A DNA stretch of 64,000 bases from an uncultured Clostridium sp. (GCA_947575605.1 CANPNZ010000003.1:41665-105664), one strand, 5' to 3'. Shown: positions 38,383 to 60,581, counted from the stretch's first letter. The notes: generated from the letters alone by a model not told the origin. A program made the numbers and translations.

Positions 38383-38556
38383 TTATGCTTTAGACTTATG
38401 TTTTCTCTCAATCAGAGGTTCATCCCATTCATAGTCGTCCTTTAATTTCTCATATGCTATCACAAAAGCAATGATTGCTATAATGGATAAAGCCCCCCAC
38501 CAAAAGAATTGTTCATTATAGGGATAAATACTTATTCCCTGTGCATCACAGGAATC
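38383..38556 (-). pseudogene. 3-prime part (57 codons plus stop) of a membrane-protein gene split by the integrative element
   Basis: The frame reads DSCDAQGISIYPYNEQFFWWGALSIIAIIAFVIAYEKLKDDYEWDEPLIERKHKSKA* with no start codon. It begins exactly at the GGAATCT repeat. Confidence 0.75.
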
Positions 38557-38630
38557 TCATATTCATATCTACATACAACCCTAAATCCTGAAATATTTAG
38601 TGTGGATATTCATGTCTACGATGCACATTG

Positions 38631-40403
38631 CTATATGTCTGAACATACCTTAATGTGAATTTTGTTTATAATATCTTTTCTTTTATAACCATTTTCTTTT
38701 ACATTAAATACTTCAAAAAATACCTCTGCATCCAGCTCTGTTATTAATGTTTCATCTATATATGTGATTCGATTTTCTTTATCTATTGTATTTGTACCTA
38801 TATTATCAGAATTTAATATAAATTTCAAGGCAAATGGCTTAACACTTCCATCTTTATTGTAATCACCTACAATAATTTCTTTTACCATACATTTAAAAGA
38901 ATTGTCTTCAAACTCATTAATTAATTCGTTATTGTTATTAATATTCTTTCTCATCGTTTGAACTCTTTCTTTTACTTTTTCTTCTGATTTTGATGTAGAT
39001 ATTGCTTTTTCAATCTTTTTATCACAATTTTTTATTTCATCTTCTAATTCTTGTCTTTTCTTTGTGTATGTTTCATCATCTATAATTTCATTTAGATTCT
39101 TTTCTACTAATTTTTCCGTTTGTTTCTTGCAATTTTCTTTCTTAGCTTTTAAATCTTCTATTAAAGAATTTACATTGTATTTTGTTAATAGCTTTTCTAT
39201 TTTATTAAAAAAGTTATCTACTACGTTTTTATTATTCTTTAGTAATTCGTTATGAACTGTAATAAAACATTGCTGCAAAACTTGTTCTGGTATTCCTCTA
39301 CTGTTTGGACAGTTTTCTTTTCCATGTTTAATTGATGATACACAATTCCAACCTACTTTTAAATTATCTTTTTGTCCCCAAGTTTTTCTCGAATATATTC
39401 TGCCACAAAAAGCACATTTAATTTTACCACTAAAGGCATATTTATTTTCAAGTGTAACTTGTCTTTCTCCTGGTTTTGCTCTTGATTTCATTATTTCTTG
39501 TACTTTATTCCAAGTTTCTTCAGATATTATTGCTTCATGATTATTAGAAGTATAATATTGGTCTACTTCTCCCATATTAATCATTCTCTTGTGTGAAATT
39601 GGATCTACAGTAAATGTTAAACCTTGTATTACATCACCTTTATATTTTACATTTTTTAATATTTTCCTTACACTACTATCAGACCATACTACATTTCCTA
39701 GTTTTGTTTCTACTCCTAAATCTGTTAATTCTTTTGCTATAATTGTAGCTCCTGCTCCCTGTAAATATCTATTATAAATATACCTTACTGTCTTTTTCTC
39801 CTCTTCATTTATAGTTATAGAATGATTTTTTCTATCATAATCATATCCTAAACACCCATTAAATCCAATTAGTTCTCCTCTTTCCATTTTTGCTTTGAAT
39901 CCTAATTTTACATGGTTAGATATGTTCTCACTTTCTTGTTGTGCTACTGAACTTAATATTGTTAATACAAATTCGCTAGACATTTCTAATGTATTTATAT
40001 TTTCTTCTACAAAATATACTGCTATGTTCTTTTCTTTTAACATTCTAACATATTTTAATGTATCTACTGTATTTCTAGCAAATCTTGATATTGATTTTGT
40101 AATTATCATATCAAATTTTCCACTAAGTGCATCATTTATCATTCTCATAAAATCACTTCTTTTATAGTCTAATGTCCCACTAATAGCTTCATCCGAGTAC
40201 ATATCAATATATATCCAATCTGAATTTTCTTTTATTTTTGATTTAAAGAATAATAACTGCGATTCATAACTATTCTTTTGGTCTTCATCATCTGTACTTA
40301 CTCTAGCATAAGCTGTTACTCTTAATAGTCCATTAATAACACCTCCATTCCTTCTATCAATTCTTCCATCGAATTTTTTTATTACTTTTACTTTAGCACC
40401 CAT
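38631..40403 (-). CDS. Large serine recombinase (integrase)
   Basis: YARVSTDDEDQ catalytic-Ser resolvase domain, recombinase domain, zinc-ribbon cysteines (CAFCGR...CPNS), coiled-coil tail. GGAGG lies 7 nt before the ATG at 40403. Confidence 0.9.
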   Translation of the reverse strand: MGAKVKVIKKFDGRIDRRNGGVINGLLRVTAYARVSTDDEDQKNSYESQLLFFKSKIKENSDWIYIDMYSDEAISGTLDYKRSDFMRMINDALSGKFDMIITKSISRFARNTVDTLKYVRMLKEKNIAVYFVEENINTLEMSSEFVLTILSSVAQQESENISNHVKLGFKAKMERGELIGFNGCLGYDYDRKNHSITINEEEKKTVRYIYNRYLQGAGATIIAKELTDLGVETKLGNVVWSDSSVRKILKNVKYKGDVIQGLTFTVDPISHKRMINMGEVDQYYTSNNHEAIISEETWNKVQEIMKSRAKPGERQVTLENKYAFSGKIKCAFCGRIYSRKTWGQKDNLKVGWNCVSSIKHGKENCPNSRGIPEQVLQQCFITVHNELLKNNKNVVDNFFNKIEKLLTKYNVNSLIEDLKAKKENCKKQTEKLVEKNLNEIIDDETYTKKRQELEDEIKNCDKKIEKAISTSKSEEKVKERVQTMRKNINNNNELINEFEDNSFKCMVKEIIVGDYNKDGSVKPFALKFILNSDNIGTNTIDKENRITYIDETLITELDAEVFFEVFNVKENGYKRKDIINKIHIKVCSDI

Positions 40404-40483
40404 ATGTTCAACCTCCATATAGTGCTTGCTACATCATATATTGTATACTCTTTTTATTACCGAATCAATTTCAAAAAAATTTT

Positions 40484-40603
40484 TCACAGAATCTTCTTTA
40501 AATGCTCATATTCCTTATCCTTAAGCAATTTTTGCTTATATAAAAAATTCAAAAAGTATATTTCTGTGCTTTTTATTAATAGTTTATTGATGTTTTCAAA
40601 CAT
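40484..40603 (-). CDS. Possible 39-aa ORF upstream of the recombinase
   Basis: GAGGAG lies 9 nt before the ATG; MFENINKLLIKSTEIYFLNFLYKQKLLKDKEYEHLKKIL. No homology can be judged. Confidence 0.25.
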   Translation of the reverse strand: MFENINKLLIKSTEIYFLNFLYKQKLLKDKEYEHLKKIL

Positions 40604-40662
40604 TTATCTCATCTCCTCATATATGACTGTATCAAGCCTTATTAATGTTTATTTTGCAAAAT

Positions 40663-40697
40663 AAATAAGTGAAAGAGTTTTACCCCCTCACTTATTT
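40663..40697 (-). terminator. Terminator-like hairpin after the Fic operon
   Basis: AAATAAGTGA-15 nt-TCACTTATTT. Confidence 0.5.
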
Positions 40698-40765
40698 GCT
40701 CACTAAAGTCGATTTTGTACTCCCCTGTTTTAAAAAATTTTTTATTTTTTTTGAAATTTAAAAGT

Positions 40766-40881
40766 CTATAGGACGAATTTTTTGAATTTTCCGTCCTATG
40801 AATTTTTATAGGACGAAATTTTTATTTTTTTCGTCCTATGGATTTTTATAAGTCAATTTTTTTGACTTTTTCGTCTTATAA
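40766..40881. repeat. Three tandem 35-bp palindromic units with about 40-bp periodicity
   Basis: TATAGGACGAA-N13-CCGTCCTATG; TATAGGACGAAA-N9-TTTCGTCCTATG; TATAAGTCAA-N-CGTCTTATAA. They start 4 bp after the Fic stop. Confidence 0.85.
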
Positions 40882-40884
40882 CTT

Positions 40885-42021
40885 TTATTTTAAAAATAAA
40901 TCTATATAATTTTGAAAAGCAAATACTTGATTTCTACTATATCCAGTTGTTTCTATTATTATATTATTTTCTAACAAAACATTTACTGTATCCTTTAATG
41001 TTGATGGTTTTATATCAGTTATTTCCATTAATTTTTTTCTATTTGTTATTGGTTCATTATACAAAACATCGATTACTTTCTTTGCATTTTCTACTTTGAC
41101 TGGTAAATCTATTATAATTTTATCCATTTCCATTGTAAGTTCAACAACATTTCTAAATTTTTCTTTAGCAATTTTTGATGTTTCAATAACTGCTTCTAGG
41201 AAAAATTTAATCCATCCAATCATATCATTGTGAGTTCTTACTCTTGTAAGCATATCATAATATGTATCTTTATTCCTTTCGATATAATCTGAAATATATA
41301 AACAAGACTTTTCAAGCATTCCTCTACTTTGAATATATAATGGTATAATTAATCTTCCTATTCTTCCATTCCCATCTAAAAATGGATGTATTGATTCAAA
41401 TTGATAATGTAAAATTGCGATTTTTATTAAATCTGGTGTGTCTATTTCTTCATTATTTATAAATTTTTCAAAATCAGATAGGCATTCTGCAATTTCTGTA
41501 TGTGGTGGTGGAACATATACTGCTGTACTCGGCATACTGCCTCCAATCCAGTTTTGTGATGTTCTAAATTCTCCTGGTGTTTTATGTTCTCCTCGAACTC
41601 CTTGCATTAATATATTATGTATTTCTCTTATTAATCTAGTGCATACTGGAAAACCTTCTTTTATTCTTTCTACTCCATAATTTGTAGCTTTCACATAGTT
41701 TTGTACTTCTTCCCAATCATCTCTCTTTTCTGGATTAATATCTGTAACATCTAATAAATCTTCCTCTACCGTTGTTCTTGTTCCTTCAATTCTGCTTGAT
41801 TTATTGGCTTCAATTTTTACATGCATTTTAATGTATAAATCCACATTTGGTATTAATAATGAATAAGCATTTAGTTCTCCAATTTGCCTATTTGCTTCTG
41901 CTAATAGCTTGTCCAATTTTGTATCATCCCATCCCCAGTTGTAATTTATTTTACTTGGAATAAATGCTTTGTAGTCATTCATTTGTATATATTCACCTGA
42001 TTTATATGCTTCTAATTTCAT
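40885..42021 (-). CDS. Fic-family protein (AMPylase type) with an N-terminal inhibitory-helix motif and a C-terminal wHTH-like tail
   Basis: HPFLDGNGRIGR matches HxFx(D/E)GNGRxxR. SSRIEG fits (S/T)xxxE(G/N). GGAGG lies 8 nt before the ATG. Confidence 0.88.
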   Translation of the reverse strand: MKLEAYKSGEYIQMNDYKAFIPSKINYNWGWDDTKLDKLLAEANRQIGELNAYSLLIPNVDLYIKMHVKIEANKSSRIEGTRTTVEEDLLDVTDINPEKRDDWEEVQNYVKATNYGVERIKEGFPVCTRLIREIHNILMQGVRGEHKTPGEFRTSQNWIGGSMPSTAVYVPPPHTEIAECLSDFEKFINNEEIDTPDLIKIAILHYQFESIHPFLDGNGRIGRLIIPLYIQSRGMLEKSCLYISDYIERNKDTYYDMLTRVRTHNDMIGWIKFFLEAVIETSKIAKEKFRNVVELTMEMDKIIIDLPVKVENAKKVIDVLYNEPITNRKKLMEITDIKPSTLKDTVNVLLENNIIIETTGYSRNQVFAFQNYIDLFLK

Positions 42022-42040
42022 TTATATCGCCTCCAAAATC

Positions 42041-45000
42041 TTAAATATATTCATCAAGAAATTCTCGTTCTTTAATACTTTCCTTATATTTTTTTAATCC
42101 ATCTATTCTATTTTCAATCTTAATTTTATGCTTTAAGTATTTAATATCTGTTAAAAGATCTGATATTTTTTTATAGAAATTTATTCTATTATTTATTATA
42201 GGTATTTCACTTCCAGACCAAGACATACTACTGCTAATTAAAGTTATTTTATCAAAAACATAAAAATCACTATTAACATTAAGAAATTTTTGTATAAGCT
42301 TTAATCTTCTCTCTTCATCAAACTCTGAAATTATATTAAAAATTTCTTCCATTTTATCTATATTCGTATTGTTTTTTTCTATATATGCTTCTAGCCATTT
42401 ATCCTGTTCAATACTATAATCTTCTTCTGAAAAAATTCCTTCTAACAAATACTGCCTCTTATGTCTTACTGTGATATTATCAATTTTACTAAGAAATATA
42501 TCTATTACCTTATCATAAATATCCATCTCCCATATATGTCTTATTGGTTCATTGTCATTGCTATAATATCCACTATTTTCCATTCTGAATTTTATATACT
42601 CATCTAGCAATTTTTCTTCAGCTATATTTAATATTTTATTGAAGTATAACCCTTTATAATCAAAGTATTGTTCAATTTTATATATTTTAAAATATATATC
42701 TATTAATAAACTAATATCTTTTATAAAAACACTTATAAGAAAATCTGCATTTTCAACATTATGTCTCCAAAACAATAAATTAGTAAATGTATATATTATC
42801 TGCTCATCATTATTATATACTCGATTTATTATTTTAAAAGTATTAATAAACACATCAGTATCAACACTTCTATATTTTTTTAGGAAATGTAAATTTATAT
42901 TTCTAACTATTGGCAATTCGATTTTTTCTCCTATTAATTTATACCATTCATCTAAAGCCTTTTTATTCACATTTCTAGTAGGAATTTCTGAAAAGCATGC
43001 TACTCTCCAACAAAATTTATTTTTTATATTACTTTCCGATATATATTTGTACAATTTATCAAATTCATACTCGTTATATAAAATTTCTATTGCTCTAGCG
43101 AAATCTATATCAATTATAGCACCACTAGTAATAAATTCCTGTATTATCTGTATATTATCATTTGGTCTATTATTAAAAATTTCTAAAAACAATATATCTA
43201 TCCCATACTTAATATCAGATATATTTTCTCCAACTGCACTTAATATTTCATTTATATTCTTAAAAATTTCTCTTATCTCATCTATTGAAGCATTTTTTAT
43301 AATTTTTTCTATTTCCCTTTGTCTTATTTTTCCATCATAATCTTTATTTTTTCCTTTTAAAATTTTATATAAATTATATGTTTTGTTGTTTCTAATATCT
43401 TCAGATATGTCTATACTTAATTTGCTTGTTTTTAATTCTTCTAATATATTATTTACAACTAATACTTCAGAAAAATTTGTTTTGTTTACTTTTTTACAAA
43501 ATTCTTCTATATATAATAAATCATTTTTCATTATTTCTTTTAGAGTTTTATTTTTATATTCTCTTATATAAAGATTATTAAATATATCATCTATTTCTCG
43601 CCTATAATTCACATGTTGATCATATACATCTAATAAGAACTTAAATATCTTATTTCTTATTTTTCTTAATCCTTCATCTTCCGCTAATGTATAATTGCAT
43701 ATCCTCATTGTTTTCATATTAACATTTTCCGCATAATCTCCATATGTTTTCAAAAAAATTGGTAATATAGTTAATCCTAATATAATGATATTTTCCTCAC
43801 AATTAGACTCTTTATATTGTTTTATCAATTCATCAATAAAAATATTTTGTACTACATAATTGTTTCTAATGTCATCAATTCTAAAAGATATATAATTTTT
43901 CACACAAAAATATATATCCTTTATTAGTATAGGTTTCTTTTTAAAAAATATAAATAATAATTGTACTGCCATACAAAAATGCTCTGAGTCTCTATATCCT
44001 ATCAATCTAGTTAATTCTTTATTTTCTATAGAATAATTCTTTTCTTTTTTTACATTTTGTATCTCATTAATATCTAGTTTTATATTTTCAGCACTCTTTT
44101 GATTAATCCTTTCAGAGATACTATTTAAGGCTTCTATTGGAATTAACGCATGAAATGTATCCATAAATTCTTGCTTATCTATATCTCTGTTTTTTCCAGA
44201 TTTTATATCTTCCCATAAATCCTTTATAGAATCCTCGACAATATCAATTGTATTTTTACTATAGAAAATATTAGTTAAAGTATTTAGAGATTCTATCATT
44301 CTTTCTCGTGGCCCATTAAATGTTACTTCTATTATACTTTTTATAGAAATATACCTATTTTTTACAAATACTAAATATAGTAAATAATTTGCTAAACATT
44401 GTTCTGATATTTTAGTCATTTTATCATTTAATACATCAACAAATTCAATATCATTTAAAATATGTATTGCATCCCAGAAATCATTCATTGATATATTTAC
44501 TTTTTCAAGTAGTTCTATAAACTTTTCATTTGTTTTGTTTACCCCATTTAAAAAAGCAATTAGTCCAGCCGATTTAACAATTTTATTTTCATTTTGAATC
44601 ATTAACTCATCTATAACGTTTTTAAAATAAATATCATATATTTGCTCTCCACTTATTATTTCTTGAAATCCTTTTTCTTTTGCTACTTTTCCTGCCATCA
44701 TAGCTATTCTAGGATTACTTAAAGATATTTTTTGAATTTGCTCTATATATGTTGAATTTTTTATTCCTAATTCTGAACTAAGAATCTCTTTAATTTGTTC
44801 ATCTGTAAGTGGTTTTAATTCTATATTTTTAGGTATAATATAGTATTTACTTAGCAAATTTAATACTTTACTCTTTGCATAGTCTCTTACTGTCATTATA
44901 ACTTTTAGAGTTTTAAATTGGTGTATCTTAATATAATCCAAAAATTGGCTCATATTAGTTAGCATATTAGCATCATCAATAAAAATTAAATATTCTCCAT

Positions 45001-45763
45001 TTTTCTTAAAATATTTTTGTAAATCTTCATATAACTGTAAATTATTGTTTCGTATACATATGACATTAATATTTTTATTTATAGATTTATATCTTTTACA
45101 TAATTCTACACAAAAATGAGTCTTTCCAGTTCCAGCAGATCCACTTAATATAATATAATTATCATTATTTATAATACTAATTGATTTATCTATCTCTTCA
45201 TCTCTATACAACAATCTTTCATTTATTTTAATTGTTAATTTATTAGAATTATATTGACTAATAAAATCTTCAATTTGTAATATTTGTAATGTATCAACTT
45301 CTATTTTTAAATAATCTTTAGCAATTGTAGCATATTCATATTTCAATAGATATGCAATCTCATCTATACTATATATTTTTATATTAGTACCAATATCATT
45401 ACAAAGTTTTTCTATTTTTTTTAATTCTTCTAGTTTAAGATTAGATGATGTATGAAAATAAATGATTTTTGTGTCTTTAGTATCTATCTTTGCAATTTTA
45501 AATACTTGAACACATTTATTAATATCATCTTCAATTTTGCCAGCCAAGCCATCAGTTTGAGTTGTATACTCAACGGCAATATATTTACCATTATCACTTG
45601 CAAATGCATCTGGAGTTCCCTTTGTGGTTTTATTTGATAAAGTATGAGAACCTAATTGGTTTATATTTTTATAGCCTTTTCTATATAATATTTCATTACA
45701 CATATTTTGAAATTCTCCTGGACCCAGTTCTATTATTTTACTCTTTATATCTAATACATCCAT
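42041..45763 (-). CDS. 1240-aa protein: N-terminal restriction-endonuclease-like domain, P-loop NTPase (STAND/AAA-like), long helical-repeat C-terminus
   Basis: GPGEFQNMCNEILYRKGY...GTPDAF...YIAVEYT (Mrr-like pattern), GSAGTGKTH Walker A, YLIFIDDAN Walker B, ELKPLTDEQIKEIL, then about 850 aa of N/I/K-rich helical sequence. Confidence 0.7.
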   Translation of the reverse strand: MDVLDIKSKIIELGPGEFQNMCNEILYRKGYKNINQLGSHTLSNKTTKGTPDAFASDNGKYIAVEYTTQTDGLAGKIEDDINKCVQVFKIAKIDTKDTKIIYFHTSSNLKLEELKKIEKLCNDIGTNIKIYSIDEIAYLLKYEYATIAKDYLKIEVDTLQILQIEDFISQYNSNKLTIKINERLLYRDEEIDKSISIINNDNYIILSGSAGTGKTHFCVELCKRYKSINKNINVICIRNNNLQLYEDLQKYFKKNGEYLIFIDDANMLTNMSQFLDYIKIHQFKTLKVIMTVRDYAKSKVLNLLSKYYIIPKNIELKPLTDEQIKEILSSELGIKNSTYIEQIQKISLSNPRIAMMAGKVAKEKGFQEIISGEQIYDIYFKNVIDELMIQNENKIVKSAGLIAFLNGVNKTNEKFIELLEKVNISMNDFWDAIHILNDIEFVDVLNDKMTKISEQCLANYLLYLVFVKNRYISIKSIIEVTFNGPRERMIESLNTLTNIFYSKNTIDIVEDSIKDLWEDIKSGKNRDIDKQEFMDTFHALIPIEALNSISERINQKSAENIKLDINEIQNVKKEKNYSIENKELTRLIGYRDSEHFCMAVQLLFIFFKKKPILIKDIYFCVKNYISFRIDDIRNNYVVQNIFIDELIKQYKESNCEENIIILGLTILPIFLKTYGDYAENVNMKTMRICNYTLAEDEGLRKIRNKIFKFLLDVYDQHVNYRREIDDIFNNLYIREYKNKTLKEIMKNDLLYIEEFCKKVNKTNFSEVLVVNNILEELKTSKLSIDISEDIRNNKTYNLYKILKGKNKDYDGKIRQREIEKIIKNASIDEIREIFKNINEILSAVGENISDIKYGIDILFLEIFNNRPNDNIQIIQEFITSGAIIDIDFARAIEILYNEYEFDKLYKYISESNIKNKFCWRVACFSEIPTRNVNKKALDEWYKLIGEKIELPIVRNINLHFLKKYRSVDTDVFINTFKIINRVYNNDEQIIYTFTNLLFWRHNVENADFLISVFIKDISLLIDIYFKIYKIEQYFDYKGLYFNKILNIAEEKLLDEYIKFRMENSGYYSNDNEPIRHIWEMDIYDKVIDIFLSKIDNITVRHKRQYLLEGIFSEEDYSIEQDKWLEAYIEKNNTNIDKMEEIFNIISEFDEERRLKLIQKFLNVNSDFYVFDKITLISSSMSWSGSEIPIINNRINFYKKISDLLTDIKYLKHKIKIENRIDGLKKYKESIKEREFLDEYI

Positions 45764-45782
45764 TTCATTATTTACTCCTCGC

Positions 45783-46256
45783 TTAATTATTTATACATAT
45801 TGGTGTATAATCAATTACATCACAAGATACACATATATGATTGCTTTTATCAAATCTTTCATCCAATGGCTTATCATGTATATGTCCAAAAACATTGATA
45901 TAATTTCTTTCCACTTCAATTGGTTCATGTGTCAAAATTAGATTTCCTAGAATAAATTTCTTTTTATATACTTCACTAAATCCAACTTCTTTCCAACCAT
46001 TTAATCCTCTTTTATAATCATGATTTCCTCTTATTAATATTTTTGTACCATTTAATTTGTCAACTAATTGCTTTAATTCTTCTGTACTACCAAATCCAAC
46101 ATCTCCCAAATGATAAACAATATCATTTTCAGTAACAACAGAATTCCATTTATTTACTATATATTCATTCATTTCTTTTGAATTTTTGAACGGTCTATTG
46201 CAATATCTAATTATATTTTCATGATTAAAATGTGTATCTGCTATAAAATATTTCAT
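45783..46256 (-). CDS. Small calcineurin-like metallophosphoesterase (157 aa)
   Basis: ADTHFNH, HLGDVGF, RGNHDYK, LTHEP and FGHIHD motifs in canonical order. Confidence 0.85.
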   Translation of the reverse strand: MKYFIADTHFNHENIIRYCNRPFKNSKEMNEYIVNKWNSVVTENDIVYHLGDVGFGSTEELKQLVDKLNGTKILIRGNHDYKRGLNGWKEVGFSEVYKKKFILGNLILTHEPIEVERNYINVFGHIHDKPLDERFDKSNHICVSCDVIDYTPICINN

Positions 46257-46298
46257 GACGTCCTCCTATTATCTTTAATTGTACTTGCGAACATTTGT

Positions 46299-46327
46299 AT
46301 TGTATTATTTTTCTTAAAAATATTCAA
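46299..46327 (-). promoter_or_regulatory. Candidate promoter of the phosphoesterase/ATPase/Fic operon
   Basis: TTGAAT - 17 nt - TACAAT on the minus strand, about 40 nt upstream of the TAGGAGG RBS. Confidence 0.4.
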
Positions 46328-46450
46328 TCTTTTTAGCGAAATTTGTAAAAATTTATTGCTAAAGAAACAAATTACATTATAATAGTTTTGCATTTACTTG
46401 TTACACACTTATAAAGTGTGTAGTTTGTTTAATCTTTTATGAAGATAAAT

Positions 46451-46479
46451 AAAAGCCTTCTATCAAAAGAAGACTTTTT
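46451..46479 (-). terminator. Terminator after the HAD gene
   Basis: AAAAGTCTTCT-tttgat-AGAAGGCTTTT followed by ATTTAT on the minus strand. Confidence 0.6.
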
Positions 46480-46527
46480 ACCTTGAATATGTACTTCTAA
46501 GGCATATATAAAATAATTTCCGATTAA

Positions 46528-47253
46528 TTATCTCTCCAATTCATGTTTCATATAAGTTAGCATTTCAATATAATCTTTAAATTGATATTGTGATAATTGA
46601 TTAATTTTCTCTCTATTACAATCAGAATACTTATCATATATTACTGCTACCTCTATACCTGCATTATTTCCTGCTTCTACTCCTATAAGTGAATCTTCTA
46701 TTATTAGACATTCATCAGCTGTTACATTTAATTCTTTTAATATCTTATAATGTATCTCTGGATTTGGTTTTAGTTCTTTAACTGCGCCTTTTGAGTATAC
46801 AAGCGAAAATATATCTTCGATGTTTGCCTTATTTATTATATTTCGATTGTGTTTCTTATATATTTCTATTGTATGGTCGTTTGTTGTACTTGCGATAGCT
46901 AATATAAATCCTTTTTCTTTTAAATACTCTAAGACTCTTTCAACATTCGGTTTATAATCAATTAACTTTCTTAAATAATTGTCTGCTATTTGATACCTTA
47001 AATTTTTTATATCTGCAATTTCCATATTTGAACCATACTTTTGTTTTAAAAATTTACAATATTCTAAATAAGCATCTTCACATTTGCTATATTCTTTTAA
47101 TTTTTCATCTCTTTGTTTTCCTATATCTATATTATCAATGTTTCCGTTTCCTATTGCTTTTATTAGCTCTTTATCTATTTCGTTCCATATTCCTATTGAA
47201 TCAATCAGTGTTCCATCCATATCAAATATAATTACTTTTTTACCTTTTAACAT
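46528..47253 (-). CDS. HAD-superfamily phosphatase
   Basis: IIFDMDGTLIDS motif I, ASTT motif II, IEDSLIG motif IV. Confidence 0.85.
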   Translation of the reverse strand: MLKGKKVIIFDMDGTLIDSIGIWNEIDKELIKAIGNGNIDNIDIGKQRDEKLKEYSKCEDAYLEYCKFLKQKYGSNMEIADIKNLRYQIADNYLRKLIDYKPNVERVLEYLKEKGFILAIASTTNDHTIEIYKKHNRNIINKANIEDIFSLVYSKGAVKELKPNPEIHYKILKELNVTADECLIIEDSLIGVEAGNNAGIEVAVIYDKYSDCNREKINQLSQYQFKDYIEMLTYMKHELER

Positions 47254-47271
47254 ATTGAGTTATACCTTTCT

Positions 47272-47892
47272 TCATCTAATATTTTTCCCTAATTTTATTC
47301 CTCTAGTTTCAATTATATTAAACTTACCATTATCATATTCTAATAATGTAGTTGCCACATCATCAATTTCCTCTATTTCTCTATCCACATTCAATATGTT
47401 TTTAAATATACTTTTATGTACATTACCATGTGTTACTATTGCAATTGTATTTAATCCTTCACTGTCTTTTATGATAGAACTAATTGCTTGTTTTACTCTT
47501 TTATCAAATTCTTCAATATCTTCTCCTCCTAAGAATGTCTTGCCAAAATAATATCCTGTATTTTTATATTCTTCTTTTTGAAATACATAAGAAAATATAT
47601 TTTTGGCAAGTTCTTTATTTATACCAGATAAAATACCATAAGAATTTAACTCTCTTATGTCTTCTATAACTTTCAATTCCACTTTTATATCTTTATTAAG
47701 TATTTGTGCTGTTTGATACGCTCTTTTATACGGACTTGTATATATTCTTTCTATTCCATAACTATCTATTTCTTTTTTATATTCTTTTACTTTATCTTTT
47801 CCGTTTTCTGTTAAGTTAAAATCAGCAATTCCTCCATAACAATTTTCTATATCGTCTATAGACTCGCTATGTCTTATTAAATAAATCTTCAT
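47272..47892 (-). CDS. Histidine phosphatase (phosphoglycerate-mutase family)
   Basis: IYLIRHSES catalytic His motif; VTHGNV second His. Confidence 0.8.
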   Translation of the reverse strand: MKIYLIRHSESIDDIENCYGGIADFNLTENGKDKVKEYKKEIDSYGIERIYTSPYKRAYQTAQILNKDIKVELKVIEDIRELNSYGILSGINKELAKNIFSYVFQKEEYKNTGYYFGKTFLGGEDIEEFDKRVKQAISSIIKDSEGLNTIAIVTHGNVHKSIFKNILNVDREIEEIDDVATTLLEYDNGKFNIIETRGIKLGKNIR

Positions 47893-48304
47893 AATTTGTC
47901 CAGCCTTTCTTACTCCTTCGATATTATGTATCTTTTTATATCATAATTTGCCCTATTTTCAAAGTCTTTTAATAATATTTTATACCGTTCCATATATCCA
48001 TTTATCCTTTTCTAATACAACACACATTATTTTTTACCCTTTCTACTTTTCCTGTGTTATCTCCTTATACTCCACACACCCTAAATCTCGATTTTGCTTT
48101 ATTTTTCAAGTTTTATAATAGTGTCAAAATGTCCAGTTGAGTTGTTGAAAAAATAACTTTAAATGGACATTTTAACCTATCCATTTAAACCTCGTTTTGT
48201 GTCCAGTTTTACATTTTTTGTTTAGTAATTTATATTTATTAAGATAAAATAGAATTGTGCTATTTACACTCTCATTTGCTATATGTCTATAATTTTTTCT
48301 GTTC

Positions 48305-49213
48305 TTATAATAGCTTTTCTATTTCTTCGCCTTTTAAATATACATCATTTATTTTATTGATTTGTTCCTTAGCTTCTTCTATTCTATTATTAGCTAGTAA
48401 ATATCCAACTATATATACAAAAGAACTTTTTAAATAAGCATAGGCTAATTTCTTATTTAAGTTTTTATCATCTAACTGTTTTTTATCTATTCCAGTGATA
48501 ATTCCTTCTATAAACTGCTTACTTTTATTTGCTTTTTCATCATTATTCATAATGTGATATATTTCACATCTTAAAGCAATTGGTAAATATATCAAAGCAC
48601 TATTTTCATAATCTATCATCAAAAATTCATCACTTACCATTATGTTGTCTGCTTTTAAATCCCAATGCATATAAAGAGGTATATCATCTTTAAAATATTC
48701 TATTAGTCTTTCCATATCGTTCTTTATTTTCTCTACATCTATATTTGGAAGAATTTTTTTGTACTTTTCTATTAATTCTACTGTTTGATTATATTTTTTC
48801 AATTCTGCTTTCTTAAATTCTGTAAAAAAGTTATCATTAATGTTTGTATATTTTTCAATTAATATTTTTTGTTTTTCTCCTAACTTTCCTGCCTTATTAA
48901 ATATATCCTCTTGTATAAGATTATCATATACTTCTTCTAAAGTACCATTGTCCATATAATCCATTATAATATAATAACCCAAATTTTCTGTTTGACCGTA
49001 TTCTAGTATATTTGGGATAGGTTGGTTTGTTTCAATATATTTATCTGTAACACTTTTTCTGCCTAAATTATTATCTTTATATATCTTTAGTATATATTTT
49101 TTATTGTCTTGATATAATTTGAACACTTTAGCATAAGATAATCCTTTATTTATTAGTTCTACTTTTGAACATTTATCTAAAAATTTAATTTCTTTCTTTA
49201 AAGAATCAAGCAT
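48305..49213 (-). CDS. Protein-kinase-like / aminoglycoside-phosphotransferase-fold kinase
   Basis: HWDLKADNIMV catalytic loop and IDYENS (DFG-equivalent). Confidence 0.75.
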   Translation of the reverse strand: MLDSLKKEIKFLDKCSKVELINKGLSYAKVFKLYQDNKKYILKIYKDNNLGRKSVTDKYIETNQPIPNILEYGQTENLGYYIIMDYMDNGTLEEVYDNLIQEDIFNKAGKLGEKQKILIEKYTNINDNFFTEFKKAELKKYNQTVELIEKYKKILPNIDVEKIKNDMERLIEYFKDDIPLYMHWDLKADNIMVSDEFLMIDYENSALIYLPIALRCEIYHIMNNDEKANKSKQFIEGIITGIDKKQLDDKNLNKKLAYAYLKSSFVYIVGYLLANNRIEEAKEQINKINDVYLKGEEIEKLL

Positions 49214-49612
49214 CTATTTCTCCTTAATTGCAATTACTTCTATTTCTATTTTACATCCTTTTTTAACTAGACTATTTACTTCAACTAATGTACTTACTGG
49301 TTTACTATTTGCAAAATATTTATTTCTAATAGGCGATACTTTAGCAAAGTCATTCATATCTGTCAAAAAAATTTGAGTTTTTACTACATCATCTAAACTT
49401 GAATTTGCTTCTTTTAATATTTTTTGAATGCAATTAAAAACATATTCTGTTTGTCCTTCAATATCTTCACATACAACATTCCCTTTTGAGTCTTGTGCAA
49501 TTTGTCCAGTAACAAATATCATTTCTGCAGTACCTATATCTACTTTTATTCCATGAGAATAAGCCCCCATAATTTCTGCTGAATCTTCTGGTATGATACT
49601 TTCTTTAAACAT
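49214..49612 (-). CDS. RidA/YjgF-family deaminase
   Basis: GAYSHGIKV..., PVSTLVEVNSLVKKGCKIEIEVIA. AGGAGG precedes the ATG at 49612. Confidence 0.8.
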   Translation of the reverse strand: MFKESIIPEDSAEIMGAYSHGIKVDIGTAEMIFVTGQIAQDSKGNVVCEDIEGQTEYVFNCIQKILKEANSSLDDVVKTQIFLTDMNDFAKVSPIRNKYFANSKPVSTLVEVNSLVKKGCKIEIEVIAIKEK

Positions 49613-49626
49613 ATTCTTTCCTCCTC

Positions 49627-50391
49627 TTAAATACTCTTTCCTCCATCTACAAGATATATTGCTCCAGTTGTCCATAATGACTTATCTGATAGTAAAAATT
49701 CTATTGTTGGTGCTATATCTTTTTTAGCATCTCCAATTCTTCCTAATGGATATAATGGTGCTTTTTCTTCTGACCATTTATCATATCCTTCTTGTGTATA
49801 GTCTCCACTTGCTACATAAATGTTAGTATATACTGCTGCAGGATTTACACTATTTACTCTTATATTATATTTTCCAAGTTCTTGACCCATATATTTAGTT
49901 AGCATATCAACTCCTGCTTTACTTGCACAATAAGCTATTGAGCCTCCTGCTCTTTCTGATGACATTGAAGAAATATTTACAACCGATGTATTTGTTCCTT
50001 TTTTTAATAAAGGTAATAGTGTTTTAGTTAATGCAAATATTCCTGTTAAATTTATATTTATAGAATTATTCCATTCTTCAATAGTTTGCTCTTCAATTCC
50101 ACCTAATTTAATAATTCCTGCTGAATTTACTAATCCATCTAGTTTTCCATATTTTCTATCTATTTCATTATATATCTTTTTGCAATCTTCTATATTACTA
50201 ATATCTCCTTGTAAAAATGTAACTTTGTCAGAATTACTACCTAATTTTTCTTTTGCTAAAGATAAATTTTTATCTCCTCTTGACAGAGAAATAATCTCAT
50301 AATTTTCTTGTTCCAATAAATATTCTATTGTTCCAAGACCAATACCACTTGTTCCTCCTGTTACTAAAACAACTTTTTTATTATCTAACAT
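49627..50391 (-). CDS. Short-chain dehydrogenase/reductase (SDR)
   Basis: VTGGTSGIGLG cofactor motif and YCASKAG (YxxxK). Confidence 0.88.
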   Translation of the reverse strand: MLDNKKVVLVTGGTSGIGLGTIEYLLEQENYEIISLSRGDKNLSLAKEKLGSNSDKVTFLQGDISNIEDCKKIYNEIDRKYGKLDGLVNSAGIIKLGGIEEQTIEEWNNSININLTGIFALTKTLLPLLKKGTNTSVVNISSMSSERAGGSIAYCASKAGVDMLTKYMGQELGKYNIRVNSVNPAAVYTNIYVASGDYTQEGYDKWSEEKAPLYPLGRIGDAKKDIAPTIEFLLSDKSLWTTGAIYLVDGGKSI

Positions 50392-50849
50392 TTTTTACCT
50401 CCAATAATCTTATTTATAATATAAATCTTTTCATCCATATGTTTAATTTATATCACAATTTAACACATTTTCATAGTCTTTTACAAATATTTTTATCTAT
50501 CAACACATTCTTTAACATTTATTAATTTTTTCCTTTGGGCAGACGCAAGGCCTGCCCCTACAATTCTACTTTGTTTACAATATTAAAGAAGATAAAGTAT
50601 CTCTACTCTATCTTCTTTAGTAACAAGCACTTTCTTTATTTTTTTATTTCAATTAGGTAGTGTGCATATACATGTTTACGCATCCCCTGTTATTTTTGCA
50701 ATTATGTCCACTCTACTTTTTTTGCCATCTTTTTATGTTTTTTGCTCTTTTTCTATCTTTTAAAAAATCTTATCAAATTCTTTTGTATCAATGGTTATGT
50801 GTTTTTCTTTAAACTTAGAACTGATACACATTCGACGTGGGTGCTGAAC

Positions 50850-51230
50850 GGAATCTTGTCCTCCTGTCAGGCCTTTTCTTTGCCTTTCCAATCCAAACAG
50901 CTGATTGTTAATGTTCTCTTTTGAGAGGATTTTTAATTCCTCTCTACTTCTCAATAAGTTTTGGTACCAGATTCCAATATCGTTATTGGGATCCTTCCAA
51001 AAAATAGAGATTTGTCCTTCCGTTAATTGCTTCTTTTCCAGTGCTACAATTGCAGCAGTTAATTCTTCTTCTGCTGTTTCAATTGTGCCTGCCTCGACAT
51101 AGTTCTGAAGATGACCTTTTACTTTTACAGTAAAGTCATCCGCAGCCACTAGCCGAATAATGGCCCAAACCCCAAACGACGCAATTGAAAGAATCAGTAA
51201 AGCTGTGATAAGTTTTCCTTTTGTCATCAT
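50850..51230 (-). pseudogene. 5-prime part (127 codons) of the membrane-protein gene split by the integrative element
   Basis: MMTKGKLITALLILSIASFGVWAII... up to ...GLTGGQDS. After the GGAATCT repeat the ORF runs 29 codons into element DNA and stops. Confidence 0.75.
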
Positions 51231-51393
51231 AAAATACCTCCTATTTTAAGACATTCGGCAGAGAGATACTTGATACATATTCTTATTATATCATACATTC
51301 ACATAATTTTCAATTTTCCTTCCATTTATTAAAAATCTTTTTTACATAATGTCTTAAACTATATCACAATAACTGTAACTTTCTAAAAATGGA

Positions 51394-51424
51394 AACGGAA
51401 CCAACTTTAAGTTTGATTCCGTTG
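51394..51424 (-). terminator. Terminator after the SecF-like gene
   Basis: AACGGAATC-13 nt-GGTTCCGTT followed by TCCATTTTT on the minus strand. Confidence 0.6.
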
Positions 51425-51448: not shown

Positions 51449-52105
51449 TTATTCCTCTTCTTTTCTCTTCTCTGCTAACTTTTTCTCAAAATAAGAAGTA
51501 ATTGCAATTAGGGACAATACATACACTGCCAATACCAATGGAATCGTTATCCTTCCAATTGGTATTCTTGCAATTGCCATAACACTTAACAAAGTAGCTT
51601 GTGCTACTATTAGTAAAGCAACTGTTTCTAGCAAGGTTTTGATCATACCTAATTTATAATAGCGAATTGCCATATATACTAATATAATAATGGTTGCGAT
51701 AGCAAAAGGCATAATATATGGTCTTACAATATCTCTTCCTCTTGTATGAGGAATATTGGTTATTTGTATACTATCTGTTGTTAGCTCTAATCCATATTTT
51801 TCATTCACTTTATTGATAAGATTACTTTTTTGTTCTTCTGTCATTTCTTTTGCCAAAATACTAACGGTATCTTCAAACACTTCTACTTTTTGAATCACCA
51901 CTGCTTGGTTTGGTAATACTTCATCTGTTATTTGTTTGATATCTCCTATTTGAAAATCTTTTTCTAAATATAATTGTATACTTTTTGCTTCTTGATATCT
52001 TAAATCAAAATTCAAACCGATTGTAAAGGTAACAATCATTCCTGCTATGATTATCATTGCTATCAAAATTGCTAATATTTTTGTTTTTTTGTTCATTTCT
52101 TTCAT
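51449..52105 (-). CDS. SecF-like protein-export membrane protein (short form)
   Basis: N-terminal TM, periplasmic-type domain, C-terminal TM bundle. It lies directly after the SecD-like gene (2-nt gap). The assignment rests on architecture. Confidence 0.5.
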   Translation of the reverse strand: MKEMNKKTKILAILIAMIIIAGMIVTFTIGLNFDLRYQEAKSIQLYLEKDFQIGDIKQITDEVLPNQAVVIQKVEVFEDTVSILAKEMTEEQKSNLINKVNEKYGLELTTDSIQITNIPHTRGRDIVRPYIMPFAIATIIILVYMAIRYYKLGMIKTLLETVALLIVAQATLLSVMAIARIPIGRITIPLVLAVYVLSLIAITSYFEKKLAEKRKEEE

Positions 52106-52107
52106 CT

Positions 52108-53544
52108 TTACTTTTCCTTTCCTGTTTCTATTTTTAATAAACTATTGGTTACAGCTATGTTATAAAGAACAATTAAAACAATCCCCCAGAACATTGCCAT
52201 ACCAAAGCTACTAATTGGTGTCCATCTAATAAAGCAGAAAGTAATTACTAGGATGATGATTGGTATTATTTTGATAAAGAAATTTTTATACACTTCTTTT
52301 CTATCTTCCTTTTGGGTTAATAATTTATTTACTAAAATATAATTTAATGCTAAAGCTACTACCATTCCGAAAAAGCCCTCTAGTGCTAGCACAACATTCG
52401 TATAACGAACGATTATCATATATAAAGACACAAAACCGATATAAGAAATAACACCTAATGCCCCTAATGCTTTATATCTCACTATCCATACTATTAAGGC
52501 TATCACTACAACGGCTAATACAATATAAATAGCTAATTCCGTTTCATTTTCTGTGATATCAGATAATATATATTGATTACTGTTGACATCATATTTTACG
52601 GGTATGTTTCCTGTATCTAAAACTGTTGCCATACTAGAAGCTTGGTCGATATAGCCTTGTAAGGTATCTTTATCGTTTGAGGCAGAACCAATAGATAATT
52701 GTAATTTTCCTGTTCTTACTGGTTCTTCAAAACTAGTTGACATGATTTCATTATCATCAATATTCATGGTTATCTTCTTTTCATTTGTCGCTTCTGTATT
52801 GGTGGCATTTTCTTCTGAAGTTGTGTTTTCTTCTGTCGTCGTATTTTCTTGTGAAGTTGTGTTTTGCGTTGCTTCATTTTCTGTTTTTCTATATTGATTA
52901 CTAATTTCTTCTAATTTTTTACTACCTTCTTTATTAAATTCAATATCTAAATATACAGTCGTTCCATTATTGGCACTTGTACTATTATTTCCTGAACCAT
53001 ACATGACTTTTGCTTGTTTAATATCTTGATTATTTAATAAAACCTCTTTTGTTTCACTATCGATAATTTGAAATTTACCTACTGTGCTTAAATTACTAAC
53101 TACATGGTCTGTGTTTTCATTTTCTGGTAATTCAATTACAATGTCTCCTGTTTCTTCTTCTAATTTTATAATGTAGTTACTAACACCCAATTTTTGTAAT
53201 CTTTTCTCAATTACTTTTTGAGAAGTTTTATAATTTTCAATGTTTTTCACTTCTTCTCCATTTTTTGCTTTTTCTTCTTTTGTATATCCTTTTTCAGCAA
53301 TCTCTTCGTCTGTTAAGTTAGCACTATCTTCTACCTTATTTCCTTCTGCATCCTTTATTGTTGTTTCCGTTTCTGTATTTACTTTTAATCGAATATTTCT
53401 ACTTCCTTTTAAATCCATAGCCAAGTCATATTCTCTTACTTGGTTTTCCATTCTATTTTGTACTGGTATATAAACCCCAAAAAACGCAATCATGGTAACT
53501 GCTACTATAACTAATGTAATGGTTAATATTTTAATTTTTTTCAT
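52108..53544 (-). CDS. SecD-like protein-export membrane protein (divergent)
   Basis: AMDLKGSRNIRLKV resembles the SecD GLDLKGG motif. LALEGFFGMVVALALNYILVNKL resembles LTLPGIAG..GMAVDANVLIFER. Confidence 0.55.
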   Translation of the reverse strand: MKKIKILTITLVIVAVTMIAFFGVYIPVQNRMENQVREYDLAMDLKGSRNIRLKVNTETETTIKDAEGNKVEDSANLTDEEIAEKGYTKEEKAKNGEEVKNIENYKTSQKVIEKRLQKLGVSNYIIKLEEETGDIVIELPENENTDHVVSNLSTVGKFQIIDSETKEVLLNNQDIKQAKVMYGSGNNSTSANNGTTVYLDIEFNKEGSKKLEEISNQYRKTENEATQNTTSQENTTTEENTTSEENATNTEATNEKKITMNIDDNEIMSTSFEEPVRTGKLQLSIGSASNDKDTLQGYIDQASSMATVLDTGNIPVKYDVNSNQYILSDITENETELAIYIVLAVVVIALIVWIVRYKALGALGVISYIGFVSLYMIIVRYTNVVLALEGFFGMVVALALNYILVNKLLTQKEDRKEVYKNFFIKIIPIIILVITFCFIRWTPISSFGMAMFWGIVLIVLYNIAVTNSLLKIETGKEK

Positions 53545-56850: not shown

Positions 56851-57342
56851 AAGTTTCGACATTTTTTGAGATTTGCCAAAAGTCCAAACTTGAAAAATTT
56901 TGTTTAAGTTTCGGTTCTTTGAAAAGCTTGGTTCCCCCTCCTCTTGGTATGAATATCATCTATTTTATTCGTATCGCTTGATTGAAACAAGAAATAGAAA
57001 TTGTTAAGTAAGAAAATGAGGGACGTTCAAGGCAAGACAGTATTCTATCCTTCTCATAAATTCAGTGATTTCTTACATAAATCAAGAAATTCTAGAATCA
57101 TTTTATGGCACCCTTCCACGCACAACGCGTGAACTCTTTCCATAAAATGATTTAAGAATTTCTAAATTTATTCCAGTCACACACTTCATTTATTCAAAAG
57201 ATAGAATGCTGTCTTGAACGTGAAAGCGGCTCATTTTCTTACTTTACAATTTCTTTTCAAGTGGAATGAACAAGATACGAATAAAATAGATGATATTCAT
57301 ACCAAGAGGAGGGGGAACGAATCTTTTCAAAAAACCGAAACT
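56851..57342. repeat. Family-B nested palindrome, copy B3 (437-bp palindrome 56906-57342, core 57085-57162 in reverse orientation), plus a solo family-A-like end at 56851
   Basis: AAGTTTCGGTTCTTTGAAAAG...CCTCTTGGTATGAATATCATC mirrored by GATGATATTCATACCAAGAGG...CAAAAAACCGAAACT. Centre ATGGCACCCTTCCACGCACAACGCGTGAACTCTTTCCAT. Confidence 0.9.
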
Positions 57343-59283: not shown

Positions 59284-60204
59284 TTATTTGATATATGTTT
59301 TTAATTCTATATCACTTTCAGCATATATTTGATTATATGCATTTCTTATCATTAAGTTATTATAAAATTGAATATCCTGTTCTTCTGTTATTACTTTATT
59401 TTTCATATTACTATCACTTGTCAATATAACTGCCATTGTTGGACTTACTGGATAATACCAATCCAATTCTTTTGGTTCTTCCGATAGTTCTGGATTAGAT
59501 TTTAGATTTATTATTGGCGAATCCGCTGTTATAAAGTGTCTTGCTGTTTTATTTTCCAACAAATTTAATTTCATTTTATTTTCTGTTATTCCAGCAAATA
59601 TGTGTGATGGCATTGTCATTAATAATAATACATATACATTTTCAAAATTAACTCCCTCTATTCCTTCTGTCATTTCTTTAATTCTTTGTTTACACCAGTT
59701 TGTTCTCATAAATTGAATAGCTAGATATTCATTAAAATTTTCGATATCTTCTTTCTTATTATAAAATGAAATATTACCATTTTTTATTTCTTCTAAATAC
59801 TGAATTGCTCCCTTTTCATTTTCACACATTTCATTTTCTATCATTTGTTTTCTTAAACTATCCCAATACTCTTCTGCTTCTTTACACACTCTCTTAGATG
59901 ATAATAATTTATATATATCAAAACCATATTTAATCATATCTATTAACTTTATAGCTTCTTCTTTTACTAATCCATTATTTATTTTATTTATAATTCCCTT
60001 TACTAGCCTAATTTCATTTTCATTGATTTCTTTCATCTCATAAAAATATCTTTCTTGAGCAACGTTCATTAAATTTGTAAAAAAGATTTTATTTTCATTC
60101 TTAAACAAACAATATATTTTTCCTTCTACTGAATTATTATTAGTCCATGCTGACAAATACTTTCTCCATACATAGTGTTGTTTTTTTACATTATTAAATT
60201 CCAT
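59284..60204 (-). CDS. DUF4238-like protein (306 aa)
   Basis: N-terminal KQHYVWRKYLSAW resembles the DUF4238 HYxPxxYLxxF signature. It is a single gene between a tRNA-fragment scar and a terminator. Confidence 0.55.
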   Translation of the reverse strand: MEFNNVKKQHYVWRKYLSAWTNNNSVEGKIYCLFKNENKIFFTNLMNVAQERYFYEMKEINENEIRLVKGIINKINNGLVKEEAIKLIDMIKYGFDIYKLLSSKRVCKEAEEYWDSLRKQMIENEMCENEKGAIQYLEEIKNGNISFYNKKEDIENFNEYLAIQFMRTNWCKQRIKEMTEGIEGVNFENVYVLLLMTMPSHIFAGITENKMKLNLLENKTARHFITADSPIINLKSNPELSEEPKELDWYYPVSPTMAVILTSDSNMKNKVITEEQDIQFYNNLMIRNAYNQIYAESDIELKTYIK

Positions 60205-60254
60205 ATTTTCTCCCTTCTTATTCTATTATTTTTTATGCGAATAAAACTTATAAC

Positions 60255-60276
60255 GGTTGGGCTGGCTAGATTTGAA
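60255..60276 (-). other. Duplicated 3-prime end of tRNA-Gln (att-like scar)
   Basis: GGTTGGGCTGGCTAGATTTGAA versus GGCTGGGCTGGCTAGATTCGAA of the intact gene (60397-60418). Homology starts inside the T-loop. Confidence 0.7.
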
Positions 60277-60357
60277 TCCCCTTCGAGGACTTCCTCGCTT
60301 CGCTCACATCGCCGCGTGCCTTCGGCTCGCTATTTCTTCTTACTTGTCAGTTCTTCC

Positions 60358-60395: not shown

Positions 60396-60470
60396 TGGCT
60401 GGGCTGGCTAGATTCGAACTAGCGCATGGTAGAGTCAAAGTCTACTGCCTTACCGCTTGGCTACAGCCCA
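60396..60470 (-). tRNA. tRNA-Gln (anticodon UUG)
   Basis: Manual cloverleaf: acceptor UGGGCUG/CAGCCCA, D stem GCC/GGC, anticodon arm GUAGA-CUUUGAC-UCUAC, T arm GCUAG-UUCGAAU-CUAGC, encoded CCA. Confidence 0.9.
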
Positions 60471-60503: not shown

Positions 60504-60581
60504 TGGGGTGGAAGATGGGACTCGAACCCACGATCTCCAGTGCCACAAACTGGCGCGTTAACCAGCTACGCCACATCCACC
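60504..60581 (-). tRNA. tRNA-His (anticodon GUG) with G-1
   Basis: Extra 5-prime G opposite C73, D stem GCGU/ACGC, anticodon arm CCAGU-UUGUGGC-ACUGG, T arm GUGGG-UUCGAGU-CCCAU, encoded CCA. Confidence 0.9.

Follow-up and report, generated by a model that had tools for sequence, protein, structure and literature searches.

In Bacillota, rumA is targeted by elements with a single serine integrase, with exchange of the rumA C-terminus and formation of tandem arrays (PMC4701971, PMC5704250). Examples include streptococcal elements that are both integrative and conjugative (ICEs) or that integrate and can be mobilized (IMEs), such as IME_SpnAP200_rumA, as well as 'rum' prophages (Ambroset et al. 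2016, PMC4701971; Guedon et al. 2017, PMC5704250). A few rumA-type elements occupy secondary sites within protein genes; in C. difficile 630, CTn5 left an adhesin gene and moved to rumA (PMC4701971). Serine recombinases also bound the intervening elements of sporulation genes, namely skin in sigK, SPbeta in spsM and gin in gerE (PMC4191935, PMC5025042, PMC5595907). Here we analyze a stretch of 64,000 nucleotides from an uncultured Clostridium sp. (GCA_947575605.1 CANPNZ010000003.1:41665-105664; hereafter the window, in which positions are counted from the first letter). It contains a 12,296-bp island (38544-50839, one copy of the crossover core included) that splits the gene of a 183-aa protein with two transmembrane (TM) helices. 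We consider it probable that this is an island of a rumA-targeting large serine recombinase (LSR) that entered a secondary attB.

The GC content of the interval is 25.0%, against 30.9% in the flanks. Using the rebuilt protein as query, we carried out the ortholog search that an initial annotation of this DNA had proposed, and retrieved four clusters with full-length orthologs of 185-206 aa (57-89% identity). The uninterrupted gene was found in syntenic empty sites (L001-L007), between a SecF-like gene and mutL, the complete order being SecD-like gene, SecF-like gene, ~185-aa gene, mutL, 145-aa gene and miaA. The closest empty site, L007, comes from essentially the same species (97% identity in the flanking DNA and 99.4% in MutL) and lacks the insertion. 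Because this near-identical syntenic locus carries the intact gene, the insertion and the split gene are real. The initial annotation had allowed for related genomes in which the two halves are never contiguous, or for orthologs ending at GGQDS; the orthologs run contiguously through the GISIYP motif.

To place the ends of the island, we compared the window with the empty-site loci L001 and L003 by blastn. The alignments break at window positions 50838 and 38543, with a 2-bp overlap. Base by base against the attB of L007, the host identity ends at, and restarts from, a shared CAC, and the junctions of related elements (L015, L025 and L026) read P_L-CA-T... Since these three comparisons concur, the crossover core is fixed: it reads CA on the gene strand and TG on the plus strand, at 38542-38543 and 50838-50839. 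The ends of the element share this identical dinucleotide, and long terminal repeats, whether direct or inverted, are absent. Intact orthologs read ...GGQDSVQHP(Q/E)GISIYPY, while in the window the 5' fragment reads ...DSVQHP/RRMC... and the 3' fragment ...CDA/QGISIYPY. Deletion of 38544-50839 yields a 183-aa open reading frame (ORF) reading ...GGQDSVQHPQGIS (join ...DSVQHPQGISIYPY), as in the intact orthologs. This join agrees across the junction with orthologs P0001, P0399, P0400 and P0402, and orthologs P0396, P0397 and P0002 read ...HPEGIS at the same place. In a split gene, such a placement of the crossover is possible only by comparison with an empty site.

The initial annotation, made from the sequence alone, had rightly located the 156-aa ORF at 50760-51230 (minus strand), the startless frame at 38383-38556 (minus strand) and an LSR gene near the left junction (38631-40418, minus strand; Pfam now finds its Resolvase, Recombinase and Zn_ribbon_recom domains). 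Its view that a 12.3-kb element splits a membrane-protein gene stands, the gene being conserved and its empty sites found, but the bounds it proposed do not. Those bounds were set on a GGAATCT direct repeat taken as the recombination core. Both copies are present (38551-38557 and 50850-50856), yet the empty-site breakpoints put the core 9-13 bp away, and the L007 alignment, the ORF of the true join and the L001/L003 breakpoints rule GGAATCT out. Two random 60-bp windows of this AT-rich sequence share a 7-mer with P=0.40 (0.17 with an in-frame offset); a shared 7-mer is therefore expected at chance level and the repeat carries no weight. GGAAT recurs in several half-sites at inconsistent offsets (4, 8 and 11 nt).

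Other claims were tied to that repeat. Excision was said to restore a 183-aa ORF, which is what the true join gives; the GGAATCT join produces 182 aa, ...GGQDSCDAQGIS, with DSCDAQG and four wrong residues. Past the core, the truncated 156-aa ORF reads 25 element-encoded codons, not the 29 foreign ones counted before, and stops at 50760. The in-frame position of both copies had served as an argument, but precise site-specific excision restores the ORF whatever the frame. As for the dyad CCTG..ACA/TGT..CAGG, presented as attB symmetry, it belongs to a chimera of element and host DNA that was never an attB. Testing the half-sites for imperfect dyad symmetry, we found 7/25 matching positions in attB and 12/25 in attP.

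Where the family of this LSR usually inserts was deduced from its relatives. The 90% cluster of the LSR has 54 members, and we examined nine loci (L015 and L019-L026) with LSRs that share 92-95% identity with that of the window. The core lies 87 nt past the LSR stop in 9/9 loci, as it does in the window, and the flank that starts at the core translates in 9/9 to HVEC(C/V)..., the conserved C-terminus of RumA. Both ends are visible in L019: the element there, of 8,726 bp, lies within the 3' end of a rumA-like gene of 458 aa (TRAM and tRNA_U5-meth_tr domains). There, the insertion swaps ...DMFPFTSHVECCSVLYLKN-stop (...HVECCSVLYLKN-stop) for ...HVECVSVLNLKKTV-stop, supplied by the element's own arm. 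The distal arm of the window element (50839-50795, minus strand) reads CAC GTC GAA TGT ... TAA, that is, HVECVSVLSLKKNT-stop, the same kind of surrogate for the RumA C-terminus. At the window site this fossil surrogate is useless, because the host gene reads the arm in another frame. No other single sign points as strongly to rumA as the home of the family, and comparison of the loci shows that the family prefers rumA. An arm of the element itself here reveals where its family normally lives.

One of these loci, L015 (763-2217 and 2192 / 11862), has a particular layout. The element abuts the 3' end of a second LSR gene, of 484 aa. The att core of this second LSR falls within the gene's coding sequence, and a flank from the 3' end of rumA comes next. 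Two different rum-type elements thus stand in tandem in L015.

The copy in the window is not in rumA, its flanks being the two halves of the 183-aa membrane-protein gene. Large serine integrases are known to use pseudo-attB or secondary sites, as phiC31 does. The window attB and the rumA attB match in 26/52 positions, and the matches are concentrated at the core (TTCCGTT.A..A.C-CA-C.GGGAAT). We then scored the empty-site window against the rumA attB, position by position along both strands (103,350 positions). With the central 30-mer, the true site scores 19/30 and ties for first with one other position; it ranks in the top 7 with a 36-mer and in the top 15 with a 52-mer. The scoring window sizes were picked after seeing the alignment, so these ranks are supportive and not a formal P value. 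With respect to the aligned attB halves, the element points the same way here as in rumA, which is the expectation for an asymmetric CA core. Another contig, L027 (593-660), carries the same host allele, interrupted at this very CA, after which come a different rum-type arm (HVEVVSVLGLKEEKKPKNQ-stop) and unrelated cargo. It is either a second independent hit or a tandem accretion onto a resident element.

Regarding its distribution, the same insertion was recovered from other runs, in L016 (99.99% identical over 10.4 kb, junction included) and in L028, and internal fragments of the element appear in two further runs. Besides the source assembly, carriers of the insertion include SRR27913913, ERZ14650996 and SRR28883714. 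In the 90% cluster of the host protein, interrupted alleles account for 4 contigs (3 with the window-type element and 1, L027, with the other), versus 21 intact. The N-terminal allele of the window was seen only interrupted; nothing found therefore points directly to excision. When the repaired protein was looked up by exact match, the collection contained neither the 183-aa nor the 182-aa form. From the mapped ends, the attP junction is predicted to read ...GAGATTCCTGTGATG-CA-CGTCGAATGTGTATC... and the repaired window-type attB ...GTTCAGCACC-CA-CAGGGAATAAGT... The attP circle junction GATTCCTGTGATGCACGTSGAATGTGTATC had 0 matches in metagenome and viral contigs and the LSR-proximal arm 0 in metagenome contigs, collections that may simply not contain the organism. 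Precise excision that would rebuild the gene is possible.

Table 1. Features of the island, its junctions and the split host gene (window coordinates)
Feature	Position	Strand	Basis or remark
Host gene 3' fragment, Q132-A183 and stop	38383..38541	-	Startless frame; (P)-GISIYP-N motif and C-terminal TM helix
LSR-proximal crossover dinucleotide	38542..38543	TG on +, CA on gene strand	2-bp overlap in blastn
Inserted island, 12,296 bp	38544..50839	-	Element genes co-oriented with host genes
LSR-proximal attP-derived arm, ...GAGATTCCTGTGATG-CA	38544..38630	-	87 nt from LSR stop to core
LSR	38631..40418	-	Pfam; PHROG integrase; 92-95% identity to LSRs of L015 and L019-L026
Conserved 39-aa ORF with ribosome-binding site, MFENINKLLIKSTEIYFLNFLYKQKLLKDKEYEHLKKIL	40484..40603	-	-200..-81 from LSR start
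Three palindromes, 40-nt spacing, CGTCCTAT..ATAGGACG	40736..40886	.	Border of variable cargo
SoFic-like Fic-domain protein	40885..42021	-	PADLOC SoFic, E=3.9e-118, full length; Pfam Fic_N and Fic
1240-aa P-loop / STAND-like NTPase	42041..45763	-	Sub-threshold AAA_14 and nSTAND5
Metallophosphoesterase	45783..46256	-	Pfam, PHROGs
HAD hydrolase	46528-47253	-	Backbone cargo common to L015
Histidine phosphatase	47272-47892	-	Backbone cargo common to L015
Kinase-like protein, 302 aa	48305-49213	-	Backbone cargo common to L015
RidA	49214-49675	-	Backbone cargo common to L015
SDR	49627-50391	-	Backbone cargo common to L015
Distal attP-derived arm	50795..50839	-	Encodes fossil RumA C-terminal surrogate
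Distal crossover dinucleotide	50838..50839	.	Empty-site comparison
Host gene 5' fragment, M1-P131	50840..51230	-	Last two bases of the P131 codon are the core
Host gene sigma-70-type promoter match	51285..51313	-	TTGAAA-17-TATAAT and upstream TG, 11/12; consensus match only
Terminator-like hairpin	51394-51423		Upstream of host promoter match

The positions of all features are given in Table 1. The recombinase itself is intact, with the full domain set: PF00239, PF07508 and PF13408 all score above the Pfam cut-off and the catalytic motif reads YARVST. Its ORF is 595 aa long, and relatives are called at 590 aa, equivalent to a start at 40403. Compared with its relatives, it has only ~11 private substitutions among 590 residues, of which the recombinase domain contains two and the zinc ribbon none; since they are so few, a shift in specificity of the window LSR is unlikely. 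The nearest annotated relatives, at ~46% identity, belong to streptococcal and Erysipelothrix 'rum' prophages. The region upstream of the LSR gene contains a sigma-70-like promoter match and the 39-aa ORF, whose length and position are kept in all the related elements whatever the cargo, three diverged lineages included, with 24/39 aa shared between the extremes. This ORF has no Pfam or PHROG match, and no known family of recombination directionality factors (RDFs) is recognizable in the element. LSR excision normally needs an RDF (PMC12286644). The 39-aa ORF is a candidate for an accessory factor, a regulator or an RDF.

We scanned ten ORFs of the island, nine of them longer than 150 aa, with Pfam, NCBIfam, PADLOC and PHROGs. 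Pfam and PHROGs revealed no phage structural, packaging, lysis or replication genes, and PHROGs gave only integrase, moron/other and unknown categories. No conjugation module or relaxase family was detected in the ten ORFs by any of the four databases, and oriT was not searched. Rfam and tRNA scans found nothing inside the element, and its DNA gave no informative match to annotated plasmids and phages. Membership in the prophages, ICEs or IMEs is ruled out by gene content. A staphylococcal cassette chromosome (SCC)-type cassette was also rejected, as the NCBIfam CcrA/B/C models score 100-121 bits versus cut-offs of 700-900.

By comparison with L015, whose LSR is 95% identical, the cargo can be divided in two. 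L015 has the same backbone of LSR, HAD, histidine phosphatase, kinase-like, RidA and SDR genes, and lacks the segment with the Fic, NTPase and phosphoesterase genes (40764-46427), its homology ending at 40763. This segment is therefore a variable cargo module. A remnant of the Fic C-terminus is found in L015 at 9440-9676. The palindromes at 40736-40886 sit between the Fic gene and the LSR module, where the L015 homology stops; they may represent a stack of terminators, or else a scar that recombination left when cargo was exchanged. The Fic gene scores under the cut-off of the NCBIfam SoFic model. The 1240-aa NTPase has no PADLOC match and 525 homologs, those listed being mostly ~1240 aa. In L019-L021, the neighbor of the Fic gene is a 524-aa reverse transcriptase (RVT_1) instead of the 1240-aa NTPase, which suggests that the gene beside Fic occupies a slot for swappable, defence-like partners.

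As for the interrupted gene, the core falls in the proline codon of the HP-GISIYP motif. A profile search of the host family gave 679 representatives at 50% clustering; the listed members are mostly ~155-215 aa and span the insertion point. The family is built of two TM helices, one N-terminal and one C-terminal, between which lie a helical ectodomain and the P-GISIYP-N motif, which is nearly invariant. The truncated 156-aa product lacks the motif and the C-terminal helix, so that the gene is most likely inactivated and its loss tolerated. The protein has no Pfam or NCBIfam match (sporulation family included), and Pfam searches with 40 family members and a PDB sequence search were uninformative. 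An AlphaFold model with a predicted local distance difference test (pLDDT) of 96.5 shows, by Foldseek against the PDB, only a generic likeness to four-helix bundles. Its neighbors are housekeeping genes, here and in distant homologs (S9/GrpE, PRTase/M23, ABC-F/CorA); no conserved neighborhood was found among the distant homologs. One homolog comes from a metagenome-assembled genome (MAG) labelled Paceibacterota. Nothing appears to tie the host gene to sporulation.

Further observations concern the surroundings. Upstream of the host gene (51449-53544, minus strand) lie the genes of two very divergent proteins, one SecF-like (218 aa) and the other SecD-like (478 aa), which are far under the NCBIfam cut-offs and have no Pfam match above threshold. 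L001 has 472 bp with a 58-aa ORF between the SecF-like and host genes (9403-9874) that are absent at window 51358-51379, and the window has ~460 bp more than L001 at 56882-57342. A segment of ~1.06 kb (59286-60343) contains the ORF of a 306-aa DUF4238 protein (59284-60204, minus strand; Pfam E=2.6e-23). As it is missing from the syntenic L001/L003 and adjoins tRNA-Gln (60396-60470) and tRNA-His (60504-60580), we regard it as a second small strain-specific insertion.

The explanation that we favor would be as follows. A 12,296-bp genomic island, neither phage nor conjugative, would be moved by an LSR whose family has its primary site in the 3' end of a rumA/rlmD-type gene for a 23S rRNA (uracil-5) methyltransferase. 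Here, the LSR would have recombined attP with a secondary (pseudo-)attB in the ...HP-GISIYP... codons of the two-TM protein gene. The exchange would take place at the CA dinucleotide and, as LSR biochemistry leads us to expect, would proceed by cutting, rotating and religating at the 2-bp core. The insertion leaves the 156-aa product and probably abolishes the function of the host gene. With it, the island brings the module of 39-aa ORF, LSR and attP, enzymes presumably acting on small molecules, and the variable SoFic-like/NTPase/phosphoesterase segment. Several points weigh against this explanation. Both junctions in rumA are visible only in L019, the other loci showing only the LSR-proximal flank, and some HVEC flanks could be arms of tandem elements and not rumA itself; the primary site is putative, being deduced from comparison. 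The window has no rumA homolog, the rumA of the source genome lying outside it. The dyad symmetry of attB (7/25) is weak. The attP junction is absent from the JGI metagenome and viral collections, though the relatives of this organism come from ENA/Logan data, and any mobility of this copy would be putative. Besides, the L027 arm at the same CA could mean that the site is a regular alternative target and not an accident.

Hence, one could argue that the HP-GISIYP codons are a regular second attB, at which elements cycle and switch the membrane protein off and on, as in active lysogeny. In the window and in L027, different distal arms are joined to one host allele at precisely one CA; this would fit the idea, as would the tied first rank of the site with the central 30-mer of the rumA attB. 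CTn5 sets a precedent by excising from a secondary site and re-inserting in rumA (PMC4701971), and some clostridial LSRs work in both directions without an RDF (PMC5704250). We nevertheless hold such a switch to be unlikely: L027 is only 1.3 kb long and may be an accretion onto a resident element, the N-terminal allele of the window occurs only interrupted, neither attP nor a repaired site was found in the collections, and the function of the host protein is not linked to conditions in which switching would pay. A larger construction, in which a recurrent second attB, the 39-aa ORF as a minimal RDF, a phase-variable membrane protein and a shuttled SoFic/1240-aa NTPase defence pair come together, is to our mind rather improbable.

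The initial annotation had drawn a parallel with skin, according to which a sporulation-controlled RDF and the LSR would excise the element in the mother cell and rebuild a sporulation-related gene. That an LSR element splits a gene that precise excision would restore, in a Clostridium-like member of the Bacillota, is what this model predicts; the conserved 39-aa ORF beside the LSR could be the RDF, and gin in gerE shows that intervening elements need not be phages (PMC5595907). We find the parallel very hard to sustain, because an element whose LSR family normally resides in rumA, and which carries a rumA surrogate, has no dedicated link to this host gene, and because the insertion is a minority polymorphism (21 intact contigs against 4 interrupted, 3 of these with the window-type element). 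The host gene has a strong match (11/12) to a sigma-70-type promoter, housekeeping neighbors both here and in distant homologs, no match to a sporulation family of Pfam or NCBIfam and a homolog in a Paceibacterota-labelled MAG, and neither an isogenic repaired attB nor attP turned up in the collections searched. It is equally far-fetched that the island is an immobile prophage remnant or a mis-join of metagenomic contigs. The first would suit the 'rum' prophages that carry the nearest annotated relatives of the LSR (~46%) and the several cargo genes that match PHROG moron/other families, but it clashes with the lack of structural, packaging, lysis and replication genes and with an intact LSR 95% identical to copies elsewhere; against the second, the junctions are exact at the dinucleotide and the right one was independently assembled elsewhere with 99.99% identity. 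A rumA-targeting LSR island in a secondary attB accommodates these observations best.

Understood as such an island, the locus provides a natural triplet of attP, primary attB and pseudo-attB with a CA core, for an LSR clade abundant in gut Clostridia, that may aid integrase mining, together with a candidate 39-aa partner ORF for this clade. It also shows a SoFic-like gene and an unannotated 1240-aa NTPase gene side by side in a compact island, and suggests that a widespread, uncharacterised family of two-TM proteins is dispensable in at least one lineage.

When set against known systems, the element is a fresh instance of an already described class and leaves the understanding of serine integrases unchanged. 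With the rumA-type elements it shares the single LSR, direct repeats that are very short, a RumA C-terminus exchanged on insertion, the tandem accretion (seen in L015) and a regular site of the family at the conserved ...FP.T.HVE... codons, inside the rumA 3' end. Unlike them, the window copy lies outside rumA and its island has no conjugation module or recognizable mobilization module. In streptococcal ICEs the att core is inside the integrase gene, a trait shared by the second LSR of L015, whereas in the window it lies beyond the LSR stop; and the window LSR is only distantly related to the annotated integrases of 'rum' phages. The likeness to CTn5 is the insertion in a secondary site within a protein gene, which was an adhesin gene in that case. 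Regarding skin, SPbeta and gin, the common traits are an LSR-bounded element in a coding sequence of Bacillota and a precise excision that would rebuild the gene, and, as with gin, the intervening element need not be prophage-like. It differs from these three in that its host gene has no link to sporulation, its LSR family is tied to rumA and not to this gene, its insertion is polymorphic, and it has neither evidence of regulated excision nor a validated RDF. Finally, the partial identity to the canonical attB at the same core (19/30 in the center, with CA) resembles pseudo-attB integration. In contrast to the experimental phiC31 cases, the event recorded here is a natural one, in the chromosome of an uncultured gut Clostridium.

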